A DNA stretch of 12,292 nt from a virus (IMGVR_UViG_3300029060_000166); one strand, 5' to 3'. Positions 2 through 8,100 are shown, numbered from the stretch's first letter. The notes: generated by a model not told the origin, from the sequence alone. Numbers and translations are program-made.

Positions 2-2452
2 ATGGCCTGGGTGGGTGGCGCGAATGAAGCCAGCGGAGCGACGAAAACGCTCTCCGGCGTGCTGAACGGTGTTGCCGGTAATATTGATAATGTGGCAACA
101 GCCGCGGGGGCGCTGGTTGCCGTCGGGGTTGCCCGGTACTTTGGCAATATGGCCTCCGGAGCGGTGTCTGCCACGGCAGGACTTGTGACGGCAGCACGTA
201 ATGAAGTGGCACTGGCGGAAGCACAGCTCAGGGGGACGCAGATTGCCACGGCGCGGGCAAGGGCAGCCGTGTACCGTGCACAGCAGGCTGTGGCGGCAGC
301 CCGCGGGACGGAGATGCAGATTGCTGCAGAAGCCCGTCTGGCGGCCACACAGGAACGCCTGAACAGAAATATTGCTGCCAGAACCGCAGCCCAGAATGCG
401 CTGAACAGTACAACGGCGGTGGGCTCACGTCTGATGACTGGTGCGTTGGGACTGGTTGGTGGCGTACCCGGACTGGTGATGCTGGGGGCAGCAGCATGGT
501 ATACGCTGTACCAGAATCAGGAGCAGGCCAGGGAGTCAGCGCGCCAGTATGCACTGACGATAGATGAAATCGCGCATAAAACGCCGTCAATGTCTTTGCC
601 TGAAGCCTCAGATAATGAAGGACGAACACGGGCGGCGCTGGCAGAGCAGAACCGGCTGATTGATGAACAGGCCAGCCGGGTGAAATCCCTGCAGGAAAAA
701 ATCGCTGGATATCAGTATGTTCTGGCTAACCCTGGCTGGACAACCGGTGACGGATTCATGATAAACCATCTGACATCGGTGAAGACCGTGACGGAAGGGC
801 TTTCTCAGGCAACAGAGCAGCTTGCCGTTGAGCAGTCCCGTCTGGCACAGATGCAGGAAAAAGCGCAGTCCATTCAGGATGTGCTTGCCGGGCTGGAAGA
901 CCGTCGTGTGGCGTTAATTCGTCAGCAGGCGGCAGAGCAGAATAAGGTGTACCAGTCCATGCTGGTTATGAACGGTCAGCATACGGAATTCAACCGTCTG
1001 CTGGGGCTGGGTAATGAACTGCTTCAGCAGCGTCAGGGACTGGTGAATGTACCGTTACGGCTGCCGCAGGCCACCCTGGATGATAAACAGCAGAGCGCCC
1101 TGACAAAAACAGAACGTGAGCTGGCCCTGTCCCGACTGAAGGGGGAGGAAAAAGAGCGTGCCCGGCTGGGGTATGCGGCGGATGACCTTGGTTTTGTGGG
1201 GGATTCGTATCAGGAGGCGAGACAGCGTTATATCAGTAATGCTCTGGAAGCCTGGCGTAATAACGAGGCGAATAAACCCAAATCCCGGGGGGGAAAATCA
1301 GAGACGGAAAAAGCGGAAGACAGTTTTTCCCGGCTACTGAAGCAGCAGAAAGAGCAACTGGCACTGGCGGGTCAGAATACAGAGCTGGCGAAGCTGAAGT
1401 ACCAGACTGCGCAGGGCGAACTGAAAACCCTGACGGAGATGCAGAAGCAGGAACTGCTGCGTAACGCGGCCCTGATTGACCAGCAAAAAATCCGGGAACA
1501 GTTGCGATCCCGGGAAGAGACCCTGAAGAATGATAATGTGGCTGCGCGTGCATCAAATGAAGCCGAACTGCTGGGGTACGGGCAGGGAGAACGAGCCAGG
1601 GAACGCATGCGGGAGTTGCAGCAGATCCGCGACAGCTTCCGCCAGAAGGATGCGGACCTTCAGTCTCAGTATCAGACCGGGGATATCAGTGAGGATTTTT
1701 ACAGACAGGCACGGGCACAGAATGCGCAGTATCTGAGCGAACGCCTTAAGGACCAGGCAGCCTTTTATGCCGAATCGGATGCGCAGCGTGCGGACTGGCA
1801 GAAAGGCTTGCAGGAGGGGCTCAGTAACTGGGTGGACAATGCATCCGATTACGCCTCTCAGGCAGCACAGCTGGCAACGGAGGGGATTTCAGGACTGGTG
1901 AATAACATCACGGAGATGCTGAACGGAAACAAAGTGGAATGGCGCAACTGGGCCTCATCCGTACTGCAGGAAATCTCAAAAGTTCTTATGAATGCCGCGA
2001 TTGTCAACGGAATTAAGACGGCGGCAAACGGTATGTCCGGTGCGGGAGGATTTATTGGCAGCATTGGTGACTGGCTGGGCGGTGCGGTGGCCAATGCAAA
2101 AGGCGGCGTGTATACCTCGGCAAACCTGAGTGCGTACAGCAACAGCATTGTGGACACGCCCACGTACTTTGCGTTTGCAAAAGGGGCCGGGCTGATGGGG
2201 GAAGCCGGACCTGAAGCCATTATGCCCCTGACCCGGGCGGCGGATGGCTCGCTGGGCGTACGCGCGGTGGGCAGTATGAACGGCAGTGCCGGTCTGGTGT
2301 ATTCCCCGGTCTACCACATCGCCATTCAGAATGACGGGGCTAACGGACAGATAGGGGCGGAGGCGGCAGGCAGTCTTGTGCAACTGATTGACCAGCGGGT
2401 GCAGGCGGTGATGCTGTCCATGCGACGTGACGGAGGAATGCTGAGTGGCTGA
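2..2452 (+). CDS. H: Tail tape measure protein, 5'-partial (C-terminal ~816 aa; the frame is open to the window edge, so the true start lies upstream)
   Basis: Long Ala/Gln-rich ORF with a Gly-rich hydrophobic C-terminal part, typical of lambda gpH-type tape measure proteins. It sits immediately upstream of M-L-K-I-J in conserved lambda order. Its stop (TGA 2450-2452) overlaps the GTG start of M (GTGGCTGA). Confidence 0.88.
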   Translation: MAWVGGANEASGATKTLSGVLNGVAGNIDNVATAAGALVAVGVARYFGNMASGAVSATAGLVTAARNEVALAEAQLRGTQIATARARAAVYRAQQAVAAARGTEMQIAAEARLAATQERLNRNIAARTAAQNALNSTTAVGSRLMTGALGLVGGVPGLVMLGAAAWYTLYQNQEQARESARQYALTIDEIAHKTPSMSLPEASDNEGRTRAALAEQNRLIDEQASRVKSLQEKIAGYQYVLANPGWTTGDGFMINHLTSVKTVTEGLSQATEQLAVEQSRLAQMQEKAQSIQDVLAGLEDRRVALIRQQAAEQNKVYQSMLVMNGQHTEFNRLLGLGNELLQQRQGLVNVPLRLPQATLDDKQQSALTKTERELALSRLKGEEKERARLGYAADDLGFVGDSYQEARQRYISNALEAWRNNEANKPKSRGGKSETEKAEDSFSRLLKQQKEQLALAGQNTELAKLKYQTAQGELKTLTEMQKQELLRNAALIDQQKIREQLRSREETLKNDNVAARASNEAELLGYGQGERARERMRELQQIRDSFRQKDADLQSQYQTGDISEDFYRQARAQNAQYLSERLKDQAAFYAESDAQRADWQKGLQEGLSNWVDNASDYASQAAQLATEGISGLVNNITEMLNGNKVEWRNWASSVLQEISKVLMNAAIVNGIKTAANGMSGAGGFIGSIGDWLGGAVANAKGGVYTSANLSAYSNSIVDTPTYFAFAKGAGLMGEAGPEAIMPLTRAADGSLGVRAVGSMNGSAGLVYSPVYHIAIQNDGANGQIGAEAAGSLVQLIDQRVQAVMLSMRRDGGMLSG

Positions 2453-3489: not shown

Positions 3490-4233
3490 ATGACACAGAC
3501 AGAATCAGCGATTCTGGCGCATGCCCGGCGGTGTGTGCCTGCGGAGTCGTGCGGCTTAGTGGTGAGAACGCCGGAGGGGGAGCGGTATATCCCTTGTGTG
3601 AATATCTCTGCAGAGCCGGAGGCGTATTTTCGTATTGCACCGGAAGACTGGCTGCGGGCAGAGATGCAGGGGGAGATTGTGGCACTGGTCCACAGTCATC
3701 CCGGTGGGCTGCCCTGGCTGAGCGAGGCTGACCGGCGGCTGCAGATAAAAAGCGCACTGCCCTGGTGGCTGGTCTGCCGGGGTGACATTCACAAATTCCG
3801 CTGCGTGCCGCACCTGACGGGACGGCGCTTTGAGCACGGGGTGACGGACTGTTACACCCTGTTCCGGGATGCATACCATCTGGCGGGGACTGAAATGCCG
3901 GATTTTCATCGCGAGGATGACTGGTGGCGCAACGGTCAGAACCTTTACCTGGACAATATGGCGGTCACCGGCTTTTACCGGGTGCCCCTGTCCTCTGCAC
4001 AGGCGGGCGATATTCTGCTGTGCTGCTTTGGTGCTTCGGTACCGAACCATGCCGCCATTTACTGCGGCAACGGTGAGCTGCTTCACCATCTGCCTGAACA
4101 ACTGAGTAAACGGGAGAGGTATTCCGAAAAATGGCAACGACGAACGCATTCTGTCTGGCGTCACCGCCACTGGCACGCATCTGCCTTCACGGGGATTTGC
4201 AACGATTTGGCCGCCGCCTCAGCCTGTATGTGA
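3490..4233 (+). CDS. K: Tail tip assembly protein K (247-aa ORF) with an N-terminal JAMM/MPN-type metalloprotease-like domain and a C-terminal NlpC/P60-like domain
   Basis: Starts MTQTESAILAHARR six nt after the L stop. A JAMM-type motif HSHPGGLPWLSEAD (H-x-H-x7-S-x2-D) is encoded at about 3691-3732, followed by a Cys-containing segment (GVTDCYTLFRDAYH) and downstream His, consistent with NlpC/P60. The 3' end overlaps I by 103 nt. The lambda reference annotation uses a shorter 199-aa K; the exact start is therefore uncertain, but the ORF is open from 3490. Confidence 0.88.
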   Translation: MTQTESAILAHARRCVPAESCGLVVRTPEGERYIPCVNISAEPEAYFRIAPEDWLRAEMQGEIVALVHSHPGGLPWLSEADRRLQIKSALPWWLVCRGDIHKFRCVPHLTGRRFEHGVTDCYTLFRDAYHLAGTEMPDFHREDDWWRNGQNLYLDNMAVTGFYRVPLSSAQAGDILLCCFGASVPNHAAIYCGNGELLHHLPEQLSKRERYSEKWQRRTHSVWRHRHWHASAFTGICNDLAAASACM

Positions 4234-4811
4234 ACACGGCAGCGGAAGCCATTCGCGCCCTGTCGATGCAGATGCCGGGCTTTCGCCGTCAGATGAACGA
4301 AGGCTGGTACCAGATACGTATTGCCGGTTATGACACGGCACCGGAGGCGGTGTACGCCCGTCTTCACGAACAGCTGGGTGAGGGAACGGTCATCCACATT
4401 GTGCCGCGACTGGCCGGGGCCGGAAAGGGTGGACTGCAGATTGTGCTGGGGGCGGCAGCCATCGTGGGCTCTTTCTTCACGGCCGGTGCCTCGATGGCGT
4501 TATGGGGTACAGCCCTGAGTGCCGGCGGTTTTTCTGCCACCACGATGCTGTTTTCACTGGGGGCCAGCATGATACTGGGCGGTGTGGCCCAGATGCTGGC
4601 CCCGAAGGCAAAAACACCGGATTACCGCGCAACGGATAACGGCAGACAGAACACGTACTTTTCCTCACTGGATAACATGATTGCCCAGGGGAACCCGATG
4701 CCGGTGCCTTACGGGGAAATGCTGGTTGGCTCCCGCCGTATATCCCAGGACATCAGCACCCGTGATGAAGGCGGGGGCGGAAAGGTCGTGGTTATCGGGC
4801 GGCAGGGGTAA
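4131..4811 (+). CDS. I: Tail tip assembly protein I (226 aa)
   Basis: Translation matches lambda gpI by recall (ARICLHGDLQRFGRR, VIHIVPRLAGAGKGG, NTYFSSLDNM, GEMLVGSR), including the Gly/Ala-rich hydrophobic C-terminal half. ATG at 4131 is preceded by GGGAGAGG; stop TAA at 4809-4811. Confidence 0.92.
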   Translation: MATTNAFCLASPPLARICLHGDLQRFGRRLSLYVNTAAEAIRALSMQMPGFRRQMNEGWYQIRIAGYDTAPEAVYARLHEQLGEGTVIHIVPRLAGAGKGGLQIVLGAAAIVGSFFTAGASMALWGTALSAGGFSATTMLFSLGASMILGGVAQMLAPKAKTPDYRATDNGRQNTYFSSLDNMIAQGNPMPVPYGEMLVGSRRISQDISTRDEGGGGKVVVIGRQG

Positions 4812-4856
4812 AAAGAATAAAAAAATCCCGCAGTGATCGCGGACAGGAACTGCGGG
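4811..4856 (-). terminator. Intrinsic (Rho-independent) terminator oriented for the minus strand
   Basis: GC-rich inverted repeat CCCGCAGT (4827-4834) / ACTGCGGG (4849-4856). On the minus strand it is followed directly by a U-tract (ATTTTTTTATTCTTTT, + strand 4811-4826). On the + strand the stem is preceded by A's and not followed by T's, so it is oriented for minus-strand transcripts. Confidence 0.6.
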
Positions 4857-4915
4857 AGAGTTACGAAGATTAAGTGTAAGGAATTATTCTTATATCACGA
4901 CAAAAAAATTAACGC
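4815..4915 (-). ncRNA. Candidate small noncoding RNA (~100 nt) bounded by a sigma70 promoter and an intrinsic terminator
   Basis: The predicted start is about 7 nt downstream of the minus-strand -10 box and the transcript ends at the 4811-4856 terminator. The span has no ATG and only 2-3 codon GTG/TTG frames, so it is ORF-less. It lies in an AT-rich insertion between I and J that is absent from the lambda reference layout. Confidence 0.35.
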
Positions 4916-4921
4916 AGAGAA

Positions 4922-4975
4922 ATTATACGCGCCACAGTCAGTTTGTGAAAATGTGAAGATATTCAGAATTTTTAT
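4922..4975 (-). promoter_or_regulatory. Near-consensus sigma70 promoter on the minus strand (-35 TTCACA, 16-nt spacer, -10 TATAAT) with an A/T-rich UP-like tract upstream
   Basis: Read on the minus strand: TTCACA (+ strand 4944-4949) matches TTGACA at 5 of 6; a 16-nt spacer; TATAAT (+ strand 4922-4927) matches 6 of 6. The upstream minus-strand sequence (+ strand 4950-4975) is A/T-rich (AAAAATTCTGAATATCTTCACATT). Confidence 0.5.
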
Positions 4976-5014
4976 GCCATTACCGGTTTTAACCAACAGG
5001 ATTATCGGTGGGCA

Positions 5015-5058
5015 TGAAAGAAAACCCCGGTATCTGCTGATACCGGGGTTTCTCTTTA
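5015..5058. terminator. Strong perfect hairpin with U-rich flanks on both strands; possible bidirectional terminator or insulator
   Basis: 12-bp perfect stem AACCCCGGTATC (5023-5034) / GATACCGGGGTT (5039-5050) with a 4-nt loop TGCT. It is followed by TTTCTCTTT on the + strand and by TTTTCTTTC on the - strand. Confidence 0.5.
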
Positions 5059-5154
5059 GCATGGCAGAAATGTGTTTCATGCTTTTCGGGCGAAGGATAT
5101 CCGACTTCTGTACGGAATGGCAAGTGGCGGTTAATTTATTCAGGGGAAGGCTGT

Positions 5155-8100
5155 ATGGGAAAAGGTGGCGGTAAGGCACACACGCCTCGTGAGGCGAAGG
5201 ATAATCTCAAATCCACGCAGATGATGAGTGTGATTGATGCGATTGGTGAGGGACCGATAGAAGGTCCGGTGAAGGGACTGCAGAGTATTCTGGTGAACAA
5301 AACCCCGCTGACGGACACGGACGGTAATCCCGTGATACACGGTGTGACTGCGGTCTGGCGTGCCGGGGAGCAGGAGCAGACACCACCGGAAGGCTTTGAG
5401 TCCTCCGGAGCTGAAACCGGACTGGGCGTGGAAGTGACGAAGGCAAAACCGGTGACGCGCACCATTACGTCCGCGAACATTGACCGCCTGCGGGTTACCT
5501 TCGGGGTGCAGTCACTGGTGCAGACCACGTCAAAGGGCGACCGTAATCCTTCCTCTGTCCGGATTCTGATTCAGTTACAGCGTAATGGCCGCTGGGTGAC
5601 GGAAAAGGATGTCACCATTAACGGCAAGACCACCTCGCAGTTCCTGGCCTCGGTGATTCTGGATAATCTGCCGCCCCGGCCCTTTAACATCCGGATGGTC
5701 AGGGAGACGGCGGACAGCACCACGGACCAGCTGCAGAATAAGACGCTGTGGTCGTCATACACCGAAATCATCGATGTGAAACAGTGCTACCCGAACACGG
5801 CCATTGTGGGGCTGCAGGTGGATGCGGAGCAGTTCGGCGGCCAGCAGATGACGGTGAACTACCATATCCGCGGTCGCATCATCCAGGTGCCGTCAAACTA
5901 TGACCCGGAAAAACGCACGTACAGTGGTATCTGGGACGGCAGCCTGAAACCGGCATACAGCAACAACCCGGCCTGGTGTCTGTGGGACATGCTGACTCAC
6001 CCGCGCTACGGCATGGGAAAACGTCTGGGGGCGGCGGATGTGGACAAGTGGGCGCTGTATGCCATCGGGCAGTACTGCGACCAGACGGTCCCGGATGGTT
6101 TCGGGGGGACCGAGCCGCGGATGACCTTTAATGCGTACCTGGCACAACAGCGTAAGGCGTGGGACGTTCTCAGTGATTTCTGCTCTGCGATGCGCTGTAT
6201 GCCGGTATGGAACGGCCAGACGCTGACGTTCGTTCAGGACCGTCCGTCGGATGTGGTGTGGCCGTACACCAACAGCGATGTGGTGGTGGATGATAACGGC
6301 GTGGGTTTCCGCTACAGCTCCAGTGCCCTGAAGGACCGGCACACGGCAGTGGAGGTGAATTACACCGACCCGCAGAACGGCTGGCAGACCTCCACGGAAC
6401 TGGTGGAAGACCCGGAAGCCATACTGCGCTACGGACGCAACCTGCTGAAGATGGACGCGTTCGGCTGTACCAGCCGCGGTCAGGCCCACCGTGCCGGGCT
6501 GTGGGTGATAAAGACCGAACTGCTGGAAACGCAGACGGTGGATTTCACGCTTGGGTCACAGGGGCTGCGTCACACACCCGGTGACATCATTGAAATCTGT
6601 GATAACGACTATGCCGGGACCATGACCGGCGGACGTGTCCTGTCCATCGATGCCGCCAGCCGTACCCTGACGCTGGACCGGGAGGTGACACTGCCGGAGA
6701 CCGGCACGGCCACTGTTAATCTGATTAACGGCAGCGGTAAGCCGGCGAGCGTGGCCATCACCGCACACCCCGCGCCTGACCGGATACAGGTCAGCACCCT
6801 GCCGGATGGTGTGGAGACATACGGTGTGTGGGGACTCTCCCTGCCGTCACTGCGTCGTCGCCTGTTCCGCTGTGTCTCCATCCGGGAAAACACGGACGGC
6901 ACGTTCGCCATCACGGCGGTGCAGCACGTACCGGAAAAAGAAGCCATTGTGGATAACGGGGCCAGCTTTGAGCCGCAGTCAGGCAGCCTGAACAGCGTTA
7001 TCCCACCGGCAGTGCAGCACCTGACGGTGGAGGTGAGTGCAGCTGACGGTCAGTATCTGGCACAGGCGAAATGGGACACGCCGCGGGTGGTGAAGGGTGT
7101 GCGCTTCAGTCTGCGTCTGACCAGCGGAAGCGGAGAAGACAGCCGTCTGGTGAGCACCGCCATCACCGCAGACACGGAGCACCGTTTCAGTGGTCTGCCG
7201 CTGGGGGAATACACCCTGACGGTGCGGGCCATTAACAGCTACGGCCAGCAGGGCGAACCTGCGACCACCACCTTCCGGATTAACGCGCCTGCAAAACCCG
7301 CCACCATTGAGCTGACGCCGGGGTATTTTCAGATAACGGCGGTACCGGTGCTGGCGGTGTATGACCCGACGGTGCAGTTTGAGTTCTGGTTTTCGGAAAA
7401 ACGCATCACGAACACGGCACAGGTGGAAAAATCTGCCCGTTATCTGGGGACCGGCAGTCAGTGGACTGTCCAGGGCGATCGGATTAAGCCGGGGATGGAT
7501 TTCTGGTTTTATGTGCGCAGTGTCAACCTGGTGGGCAAGTCTGCATTTGTGGAAGCCAGCGGGCAGGCCAGCAATGATGCAAAAGGGTATCTGGAATTTT
7601 TCCGTGGTCTGATAGATGAGACGCTGCTGGGGCAGGCACTGAAAGAGCGCATTGATGCTTCAGCGCTGCGTACGGAGGTCACGCAACTGGAAGAAGATAT
7701 CCGTCAGCGGATGGACACGGATATCGCAGAAGTGACCCGGAAAATCGGGAAGGCGGAAAACAGCCTCACGCAGCTGGTTGCGAAAAAGAATGAGGACCAG
7801 ACACTGGCCATCGCGCAGGTGAGCCAGAAAGTGGACCGGGTGAGCAGTGAAATCTCACAGACTGTCAGCCAGGGGCAGTCAGAAAACGCCCGACAGATAG
7901 CACAGGTCCGCCAGTACGTGGATAAAAAAGGGAGTGAAATTACCTCGACCACGGATAAAAAGCTGGGTGACCAGGCCGTGACCATACAGCAAATCCAGCG
8001 GGTTCAGTCAGACACGCGCAATGAGCTGAATGCCATGTATATGCTGAAGGTGCAGAAAACAAAAAACGGTATTCCCTATGTGGCCGGGATTGGCGCGGGG

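Follow-up and report, generated by a model that had tools for sequence, protein, structure and literature searches.

A hairpin of 13 perfect base pairs lies between the tail genes I and J of a lambdoid Escherichia coli prophage, and we judge it likely that this hairpin is an intrinsic terminator, namely a two-way allele of a conserved terminator in front of J that is read through by antiterminated late transcription. We found that a late-strand terminator-like hairpin is conserved by position before J in lambda-like, HK97/HK022-like and T1-like phages, in sequences that are unrelated to one another; a pre-J terminator is general in lambda-like and T1-like tail operons and not specific to this locus. 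The minus-strand promoter beside the hairpin belongs to the gene of a published small RNA, PasB. Both points are new relative to the initial annotation, which was made from the sequence alone.

Results

The hairpin occupies the sole spacer of the H to J block

The window (the whole stretch of DNA that was analysed, 12,292 nt of the viral sequence IMGVR_UViG_3300029060_000166) covers the tail genes H-M-L-K-I-J-lom-stf of a lambdoid E. coli prophage, and the layout in annotated E. coli prophages agrees with its gene order. Terminators were scored by combining hairpin stability per nucleotide with a weighted T-tail (the d'Aubenton Carafa formula, with energies from ViennaRNA), and the resulting scores are usable for comparison only. 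The protein-coding genes, the two terminators downstream of J and a promoter-like site in the J leader are as follows:

2-2452, plus strand: gene H
between H and I, plus strand: genes M, L and K
4131-4811, plus strand: tail assembly gene I (stop codon TAA at 4809-4811)
5094-5123, minus strand: weak promoter-like site, TTGCCA-18-TATCCT, inside the J leader and pointing at the hairpin
5155-8847, plus strand: tail tip / host specificity gene J
8866-8885, plus strand: J/lom terminator, strong, score +38
8915-9514, plus strand: Ail/Lom gene (PF06316)
9618-9647, plus strand: lom/stf terminator, strong, score +42
9666-11729, plus strand: tail-fibre gene (stf)

The J/lom and lom/stf terminators bracket the Ail/Lom gene, as terminators that bound a moron.

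Genes H to I form a block without spacers, the sole gap being the 343-nt spacer between I and J, across which the GC content falls from ~0.60 to 0.34-0.42, a drop expected of an inserted cassette. The hairpin sits in this spacer 104 nt before the J start at 5155, just upstream of J as had been described from the outset, and ~70 nt from the -35 box of the PasB promoter, on the upstream side of that promoter. It does not lie between convergent units: PasB (minus strand, from ~4915) and J (plus strand, from 5155) both run away from it, and gene I (plus strand) is the only unit that points into it. With three late-strand sites, the late operon within the window crosses at least three intrinsic terminators.

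Downstream of the hairpin, no convincing plus-strand promoter was found in the window. A plus-strand candidate between PasB and the hairpin (ACGACA-18-AATTAT, 8/12 by eye) fell below the scan threshold and was rejected; this match overlaps the PasB -10. On the minus strand, no source of transcription inside J was found, and the promoter-like site at 5094-5123 matches the consensus at 9 of 12 positions, a level at which the window contains 7 sites (8.1 expected in shuffles).

A symmetric hairpin with U-rich tracts on both strands

The elements of the hairpin, within the region 5013-5064 that reads CATGAAAGAAAACCCCGGTATC-TGCT-GATACCGGGGTTTCTCTTTAGCATG, are the following:

5013-5064: extended helix, ~22 bp in total with two small bulges, obtained by folding
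5016-5024, minus strand: T-tract TTTTCTTTC following the G+C core, where minus-strand transcripts are predicted to be released
5022-5051: core hairpin, AAACCCCGGTATC / TGCT / GATACCGGGGTTT, 13 perfect pairs
5049-5057, plus strand: T-tract TTTCTCTTT following the G+C core, where late-strand transcripts are predicted to be released

A repeat search returned perfect arms of 13 nt each (5022-5034 and 5039-5051) around the 4-nt loop TGCT; the perfect stem-loop of the initial annotation is thus present, with a stem one pair longer than the 12 bp it had been given. The 10-bp core (CCCCGGTATC/GATACCGGGG) contains six G-C pairs and has a free energy of -19.1 kcal/mol on the plus strand and -18.5 kcal/mol on the minus strand. 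Beyond the 13 perfect pairs, 5 + 4 more form across two bulges, the A-tract GAAAGAAAA pairing with the T-tract TTTCTCTTT with one bulged C and an outer CATG pairing with CATG. Folded as RNA, the segment 5005-5070 reaches a minimum free energy of -32.2 kcal/mol (plus) and -28.7 kcal/mol (minus), with z ~ -5.4, and none of 200 shuffles folded equally well, which bears out the earlier description of the hairpin as very stable. Among perfect hairpins with loops of 3-8 nt it is also the longest in the 12.3-kb window, and 13 bp was reached in none of 200 dinucleotide shuffles of the whole window, the maximum there being 12 bp, in two shuffles. The hairpin is real and non-random.

The features that mark an intrinsic terminator, namely a G+C-rich stem of ~5-14 bp, a loop of 3-8 nt and a U-rich tract 3' of the stem, were all found. 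The T-rich runs that had been noticed on both strands give U-tracts directly 3' of the stem (UUUCUCUUU on the plus strand and UUUUCUUUC on the minus strand), each with 7 U in 9 nt and each interrupted by C; both T-tracts overlap the terminal A-U pairs of the stem. The interruption of the plus-strand tract may make termination partial. The automated terminator scan of the window did not list the hairpin, probably because the A-U and G-U pairs at its ends were counted as stem, leaving too few T in the tail. Rfam gave nothing at gathering thresholds in the window and only sub-threshold generic hairpin matches within 4780-5200.

Coding readings of the spacer were rejected. Its spanning open reading frames (113 aa on the plus strand; 94 aa and 44 aa on the minus strand) run straight through the hairpin and the PasB promoter and have no Pfam or PHROG match. 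The 'hypothetical protein' gp9c of phage ASU11 (L125:1215-1415, equivalent to window 4974-5174) is a shorter, internal-start version of the spacer frame that crosses the hairpin and overlaps the J start; it likewise matches nothing in Pfam or PHROG and was probably miscalled as a gene.

The neighbouring minus-strand promoter belongs to PasB

PasB was described in enteropathogenic E. coli E2348/69 as an Hfq-dependent RNA of 83 nt encoded between E2348C_1436 and E2348C_1437 (Pearl Mizrahi et al., 2021; PMC8550237), and has been reported as embedded in a phage structural-gene operon and frequent in extraintestinal isolates (Zhu et al., 2026; bioRxiv 10.64898/2026.05.13.724894). In the window its gene has these parts:

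4820-4915, minus strand: PasB sRNA gene, 5' end predicted from the promoter
4826-4857, minus strand: PasB terminator, a hairpin followed by T7, score +30 on the minus strand
4922-4949, minus strand: PasB promoter, TTCACA-16-TATAAT, near-consensus with 11/12 matches

We identified the gene by its location between the tail assembly gene and J, opposite the late operon, by the published PasB Northern probe (AATCCCGCAGTGATCGCGGAGCT), which matches window 4824-4843 at 20 of 23 bases, and by alignment of the E2348/69 locus with the window over the PasB promoter and terminator. The RNA body differs in allele from that of E2348/69 and is the allele of Stx2c phages. The 5' end mapped in E2348/69 corresponds to ~4899 in the window, and expression, Hfq dependence and size are demonstrated for the E2348/69 RNA only (PMC8550237). 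Upstream of the promoter lies an A/T-rich stretch (4950-4975), and this block is conserved across spacer types. PasB has no Rfam family, at gathering or at permissive thresholds. Its terminator is not terminator-like on the plus strand, so unmodified polymerases arriving from gene I would cross both I and the PasB cassette and end at the hairpin.

Three types of spacer and a repeated insertion site

We compared spacers from the conserved PasB promoter block, which served as the anchor, to the J start, and distinguished three types:

Type A (the window): 186 nt from anchor to J start
Type B (E2348/69, Stx2c and Stx1a phages, YYZ-2008): ~83 nt
Type C: a minus-strand sodC-like gene in place of the PasB promoter, with no hairpin next to J

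Type A has ~100 extra nt between hairpin and J that are missing from the other types. The type B hairpin is unrelated to that of type A, reading CAGGCAYCC-loop-GGRTGCCTG and then TTGTTTTTG on the late strand. The type C spacer is exemplified by an IMG/VR prophage (L220:640-1500) in which the 3' part of PasB remains beside a sodC open reading frame with its own terminator; this minus-strand frame looks like a periplasmic Cu,Zn superoxide dismutase, its translation having been judged by eye. All four combinations of PasB allele and downstream spacer type were seen, and we conclude that alleles and spacer types recombine freely.

Other accessory genes lie at the same junction, including gp22 and srb, annotated as morons, in HK022 (L268:180-500) and morF in phi80 (L269:31-564). 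Since these genes, PasB and sodC all occur at one junction, I-J is a repeated insertion site for accessory genes.

Terminator-like hairpins precede J in unrelated sequences

In lambda (J02459, ~15462-15490) the I-J spacer is 60 nt long, lacks PasB and contains the hairpin AAACCGCC-TGCG-GGCGGTTTTGTCATTT, of which a lambda variant has the stem GAGCCGCC. HK022 has a pre-J stem of the GGCCACC class, in the hairpin AGCCACC-TTCG-GGTGGCTTTTTTT downstream of gp22 and srb, and the Serratia phage Bonzee has AAAGCCCC-TATCCT-GGGGCTTTTTTT. We surveyed 80 loci for each of three J families, applying a simple hairpin-plus-T-run rule to the 150 nt upstream of J and counting distinct upstream sequences. Plus-strand terminator-like sites were distributed as follows:

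EHEC-type J: 22/25 distinct upstream sequences
HK022-type J: 65/67 distinct upstream sequences
lambda-type J: 49/49 distinct upstream sequences

Across the three families this amounts to 136/141 distinct sequences, and the same rule found a terminator-like site in 0/423 control windows of the same size inside J. Minus-strand sites were present in 8 of the 141 upstream sequences, five of these being type A. Sequences within a J family are related, and the independent evidence is therefore the number of unrelated stem classes, of which there are at least six: lambda, lambda variant, HK022/HK97, Bonzee, type B (E2348/69) and type A. Within families the stems are kept and the loops vary (TGCG, TCCG, TCAG and TCTG; TTCG, TTCA, TCCG and TTTG). 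Covariation in type B is confined to one pair (C-G 4, U-A 4, U-G 1, mismatch 1) and is not significant, being reached by 50 of 500 shuffles. Among related prophages, the pre-J hairpin is missing from the sodC-carrying spacer, from phi80 and from one natural deletion.

Scores of the pre-J hairpins on the two strands were:

Type A (the window): +22 plus, +33 minus
Type B: +12 to +25 plus, -21 minus
lambda: +19 plus, -17 minus
HK022: +37 plus, -28 minus
Bonzee: +34 plus

Of the pre-J hairpins scored on both strands, type A alone is also positive on the minus strand, in keeping with the two-way terminator that the initial annotation had thought possible; those of lambda, HK022 and type B score -17 to -28 there. 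The lambda, HK022 and E2348/69-type hairpins are terminator-like on the late strand only, also in those spacers that have the same minus-strand promoter. Because plus-strand scores are positive throughout and minus-strand scores only in type A, the conserved property is predicted to be late-strand termination.

The T1-like virulent phages Jk06, phiEB49, IME347 and Klebsiella Sin4 have a terminator directly after gene I, which in the Sin4 GenBank record was annotated as a terminator by its depositors. About 10-20 nt past it, each of the four loci (L435, L436, L437 and L439, from Jk06, phiEB49, Sin4 and IME347, respectively) has a -10 hexamer, TAGAAT, TATAAT or TACAAT; as sequence evidence, this suggests that J in T1-like virulent phages has its own promoter, and the T1-like I/J junction looks like a boundary between transcription units. 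The idea that pre-J terminators are confined to phages with Q antitermination is refuted by these virulent phages, which have them. The type A string TGTACGGAATGGCA resembles TGTAGAATGGCA of Jk06 at the same relative place. Genes I and J overlap or abut, with no hairpin, in Dhillonvirus, Burkholderia phi644-2, Stenotrophomonas SBP3.1, Moraxella Mcat1, Erwinia Midgardsormr38 and phi80.

The type A element is common and nearly invariant

The spacer with its flanks (4790-5170) is present in 1668 of 5426 complete E. coli genomes, and the hairpin-bearing segment 4960-5160 in 1446 (about 27%). Identity in the latter is 99% or more in 1444 of 1451 E. coli records, and a search for more distant homologues in E. 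coli genomes and the phage collection found none; this near-invariance leaves no covariation signal for or against the type A structure. A block spanning the PasB promoter, the hairpin, the J leader and the first 145 nt of J (4944-5300) is 100% identical in a PPompW prophage, whereas the flanks of that prophage share only 90-94% identity with the window and its PasB body differs from the window's at 30 positions. In a pattern search of IMG/VR and one genome per species, the hairpin with its TGCT loop was confined to the I-J junction of prophages from E. coli and E. albertii. Stem matches in Hahellaceae, Actinomycetota, Clostridiales and other groups were rejected as relatives, their loops and flanks being different; they are chance-shared terminators, one example being the terminator after the 5S rRNA in a Hahellaceae genome.

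Natural variants of type A are rare and uncompensated:

L174: single change that breaks a stem pair
L138: single change in the terminal A-U pairs, at the first T of the plus-strand T-tract
other small variants: a one-base A deletion and two T-tract variants
L157: clean deletion of the hairpin between AGAAA repeats
L013: IS3-family insertion at ~5004
L003 (strain NZRM4165): deletion from inside gene I to 5042, inside the hairpin

The rearrangement end points in L157, L003 and L013 cluster at the hairpin. The copy in prophage Sp12 of O157:H7 strain Sakai (L126; NC_002695.2, 2217494-2217523) adjoins PasB and carries the T-tract variant TTTTCTTT, which gives an 18-bp perfect stem; Term-seq data exist for this strain, a carrier of the element (GSE143631; Sy et al., 2020). 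No paper in the searched literature contains the hairpin sequence.

Alternative explanations

The initial annotation had also offered an RNA processing or stability element and a protein-binding palindrome as alternatives, and both are less favoured than a terminator because the positional analogues share the hairpin-plus-T-run design and share neither stem length nor sequence. That the hairpin acts mainly on RNA, either as an RNase III site that parts J from the upstream tail message or as a protective stem-loop at the 3' end of I or the 5' end of J, is in our view unlikely, though it deserves some weight: the ~22-bp helix with its A/U extension and outer CAUG pairs falls within the lengths that RNase III accepts, the perfect stem of 18 bp in Sakai could likewise be a substrate, and the hairpin sits between cistrons of a very long operon and necessarily persists in the mRNA after Q-modified read-through. 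With only 7-11 bp, the stems of the lambda, HK022, Bonzee and type B analogues fall short of what RNase III requires; all of these hairpins keep a late-strand T-run directly 3' of the stem, which neither a decay barrier nor a processing site needs, and the type A hairpin is 104 nt from the J start and so not at a defined 5' end. We regard it as barely credible that the element acts as DNA, whether by binding a dimeric protein or by serving in recombination or cruciform formation. Its dyad symmetry is perfect over 30 bp, and rearrangement end points lie nearby (the NZRM4165 deletion, the IS at ~5004 and the hairpin-removing deletion); palindromes are generic deletion hot spots, however, so that such rearrangements can arise without a dedicated function, one DNA-binding protein is unlikely to serve analogues that have no sequence in common, and the same stem elsewhere belongs to ordinary terminators, as after the 5S rRNA in Hahellaceae.

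Two further explanations concern the history of the spacer and its minus strand. A functionless relic, left over from a former moron's terminator in the I-J hot spot and kept only by linkage with J and PasB, would fit the repeated use of this junction for insertion (gp22/srb in HK022, morF in phi80, sodC in EHEC prophages and PasB in many), and type A indeed has no compensatory changes and tolerates occasional stem-breaking single changes and one clean deletion. We nevertheless consider it very unlikely, as six unrelated forms in 136/141 sequences, with loops varying and stems preserved, are hard to explain without selection, and prophages with 6-10% divergence in their flanks share an identical block 4944-5300. 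The promoter-like site at 5123..5094 raises the question of a second small RNA: if real, it would, speculatively, give a ~75-nt minus-strand RNA antisense to the J leader and in tandem with PasB, of which the hairpin would be the terminator. On the minus strand, 36 nt separate the site from the hairpin downstream of it; the RNA is predicted to fold with a stem-loop at its 5' end, then an A-rich linker and the terminator with its U-tail (z = -7.3), a layout like that of small RNAs; type A alone has a good minus-strand T-tract, with a higher score on the minus than on the plus strand; and such an RNA would explain both the two-way design and the ~100 extra nt of type A. Against this, the 9/12 promoter match is at chance level (7 found, 8.1 expected), the z value is dominated by the terminator hairpin itself, Rfam has no match, and Tree et al. 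(2014) list no Hfq-bound sRNA at the Sakai Sp12 spacer, with ECs2235 and ECs2236 absent from two supplementary files of that paper. We hold this explanation to be quite unlikely, and place equally little confidence in a broader version, in which the pre-J terminator is an old, selected transcription-unit boundary of the lambda/T1 tail-tip module that became two-way here by also ending this ~75-nt RNA (5123..5094).

Discussion

We favour an intrinsic terminator that late transcription passes by antitermination, and its action could be as follows. The design is symmetric, an A-tract being mirrored by a T-tract, such that RNA of either strand would present a hairpin and then a U-run. In the lysogen, where Q is presumably absent, the hairpin would stop polymerase before J, lom and stf. 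In lambda and lambdoid late operons, Q-modified polymerase reads through terminators, and by analogy Q-modified polymerase would pass the hairpin after induction; the window itself holds neither Q nor pR'. After read-through the hairpin would stay in the late mRNA as an intercistronic stem-loop, where it could act as a barrier that delays 3'-to-5' degradation of the upstream message. On the minus strand, it would stop antisense polymerases leaving J ~70 nt before the PasB -35 box, and PasB would then arise from its own start alone, with a defined 5' end.

These two functions of the hairpin stand on different footings. The proposal that it is an intrinsic terminator requiring antiterminated late read-through was made in the initial annotation, and the comparative data and the sequence-based score now support it as a prediction. 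The minus-strand promoter that was to be insulated exists (4949..4922, 11/12); that the hairpin shields it is plausible from the sequence, with nothing comparative behind it, the analogues being terminator-like on the late strand only. In sum, the earlier interpretation largely holds on the late strand; on the minus strand it is plausible but lacks support.

The hairpin itself is most likely an ordinary terminator, in an informative context. Like the intrinsic terminators known from lambdoid late operons it has a G+C-rich stem, a short loop, a T-run and an intergenic site, but it is symmetric and scores on both strands; compared with other pre-J terminators, its stem is longer (13 perfect bp) and its distance to the J start is 104 nt, against 15-35 nt for them. 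The lambda I-J hairpin has the same slot, orientation and hairpin-plus-T-run design, and differs in its unrelated sequence, its shorter stem, its restriction to the late strand, its 60-nt spacer and the absence of PasB. Bidirectional terminators between convergent E. coli genes have the same A-tract/T-tract mirror, whereas PasB and J, the neighbours of the window's hairpin, diverge from it. The PasB cassette resembles lambdoid moron cassettes in having its own promoter and terminator, a lower GC content and an insertion hot spot as its site; unlike a moron's own terminator, which for PasB lies at 4857..4826, the hairpin is upstream of the PasB promoter. The T1-like I/J boundary, with its late-strand terminator directly after I, is comparable to the pre-J terminator of the window, but has a good -10 hexamer before J where the window has no convincing plus-strand promoter.

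According to the phage L genome paper (PMC8022706), terminators inside lambdoid late operons are common and their roles are unknown; its authors propose that termination is partial, or that spurious transcription without antitermination is blocked. Our analysis identifies PasB, distinguishes modular spacer types and shows that the pre-J terminator is conserved by position in lambda-like and T1-like phages. It fixes the anatomy of the locus as I, PasB on the opposite strand, a predicted two-way terminator and J, which helps in mapping or deleting PasB. Nature also provides ready-made comparisons, in the hairpin deletion, the 18-bp allele of Sakai and the one-way type B hairpin with the same PasB promoter. 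The positional conservation of the pre-J terminator offers a concrete, testable case for the role of terminators inside antiterminated late operons.
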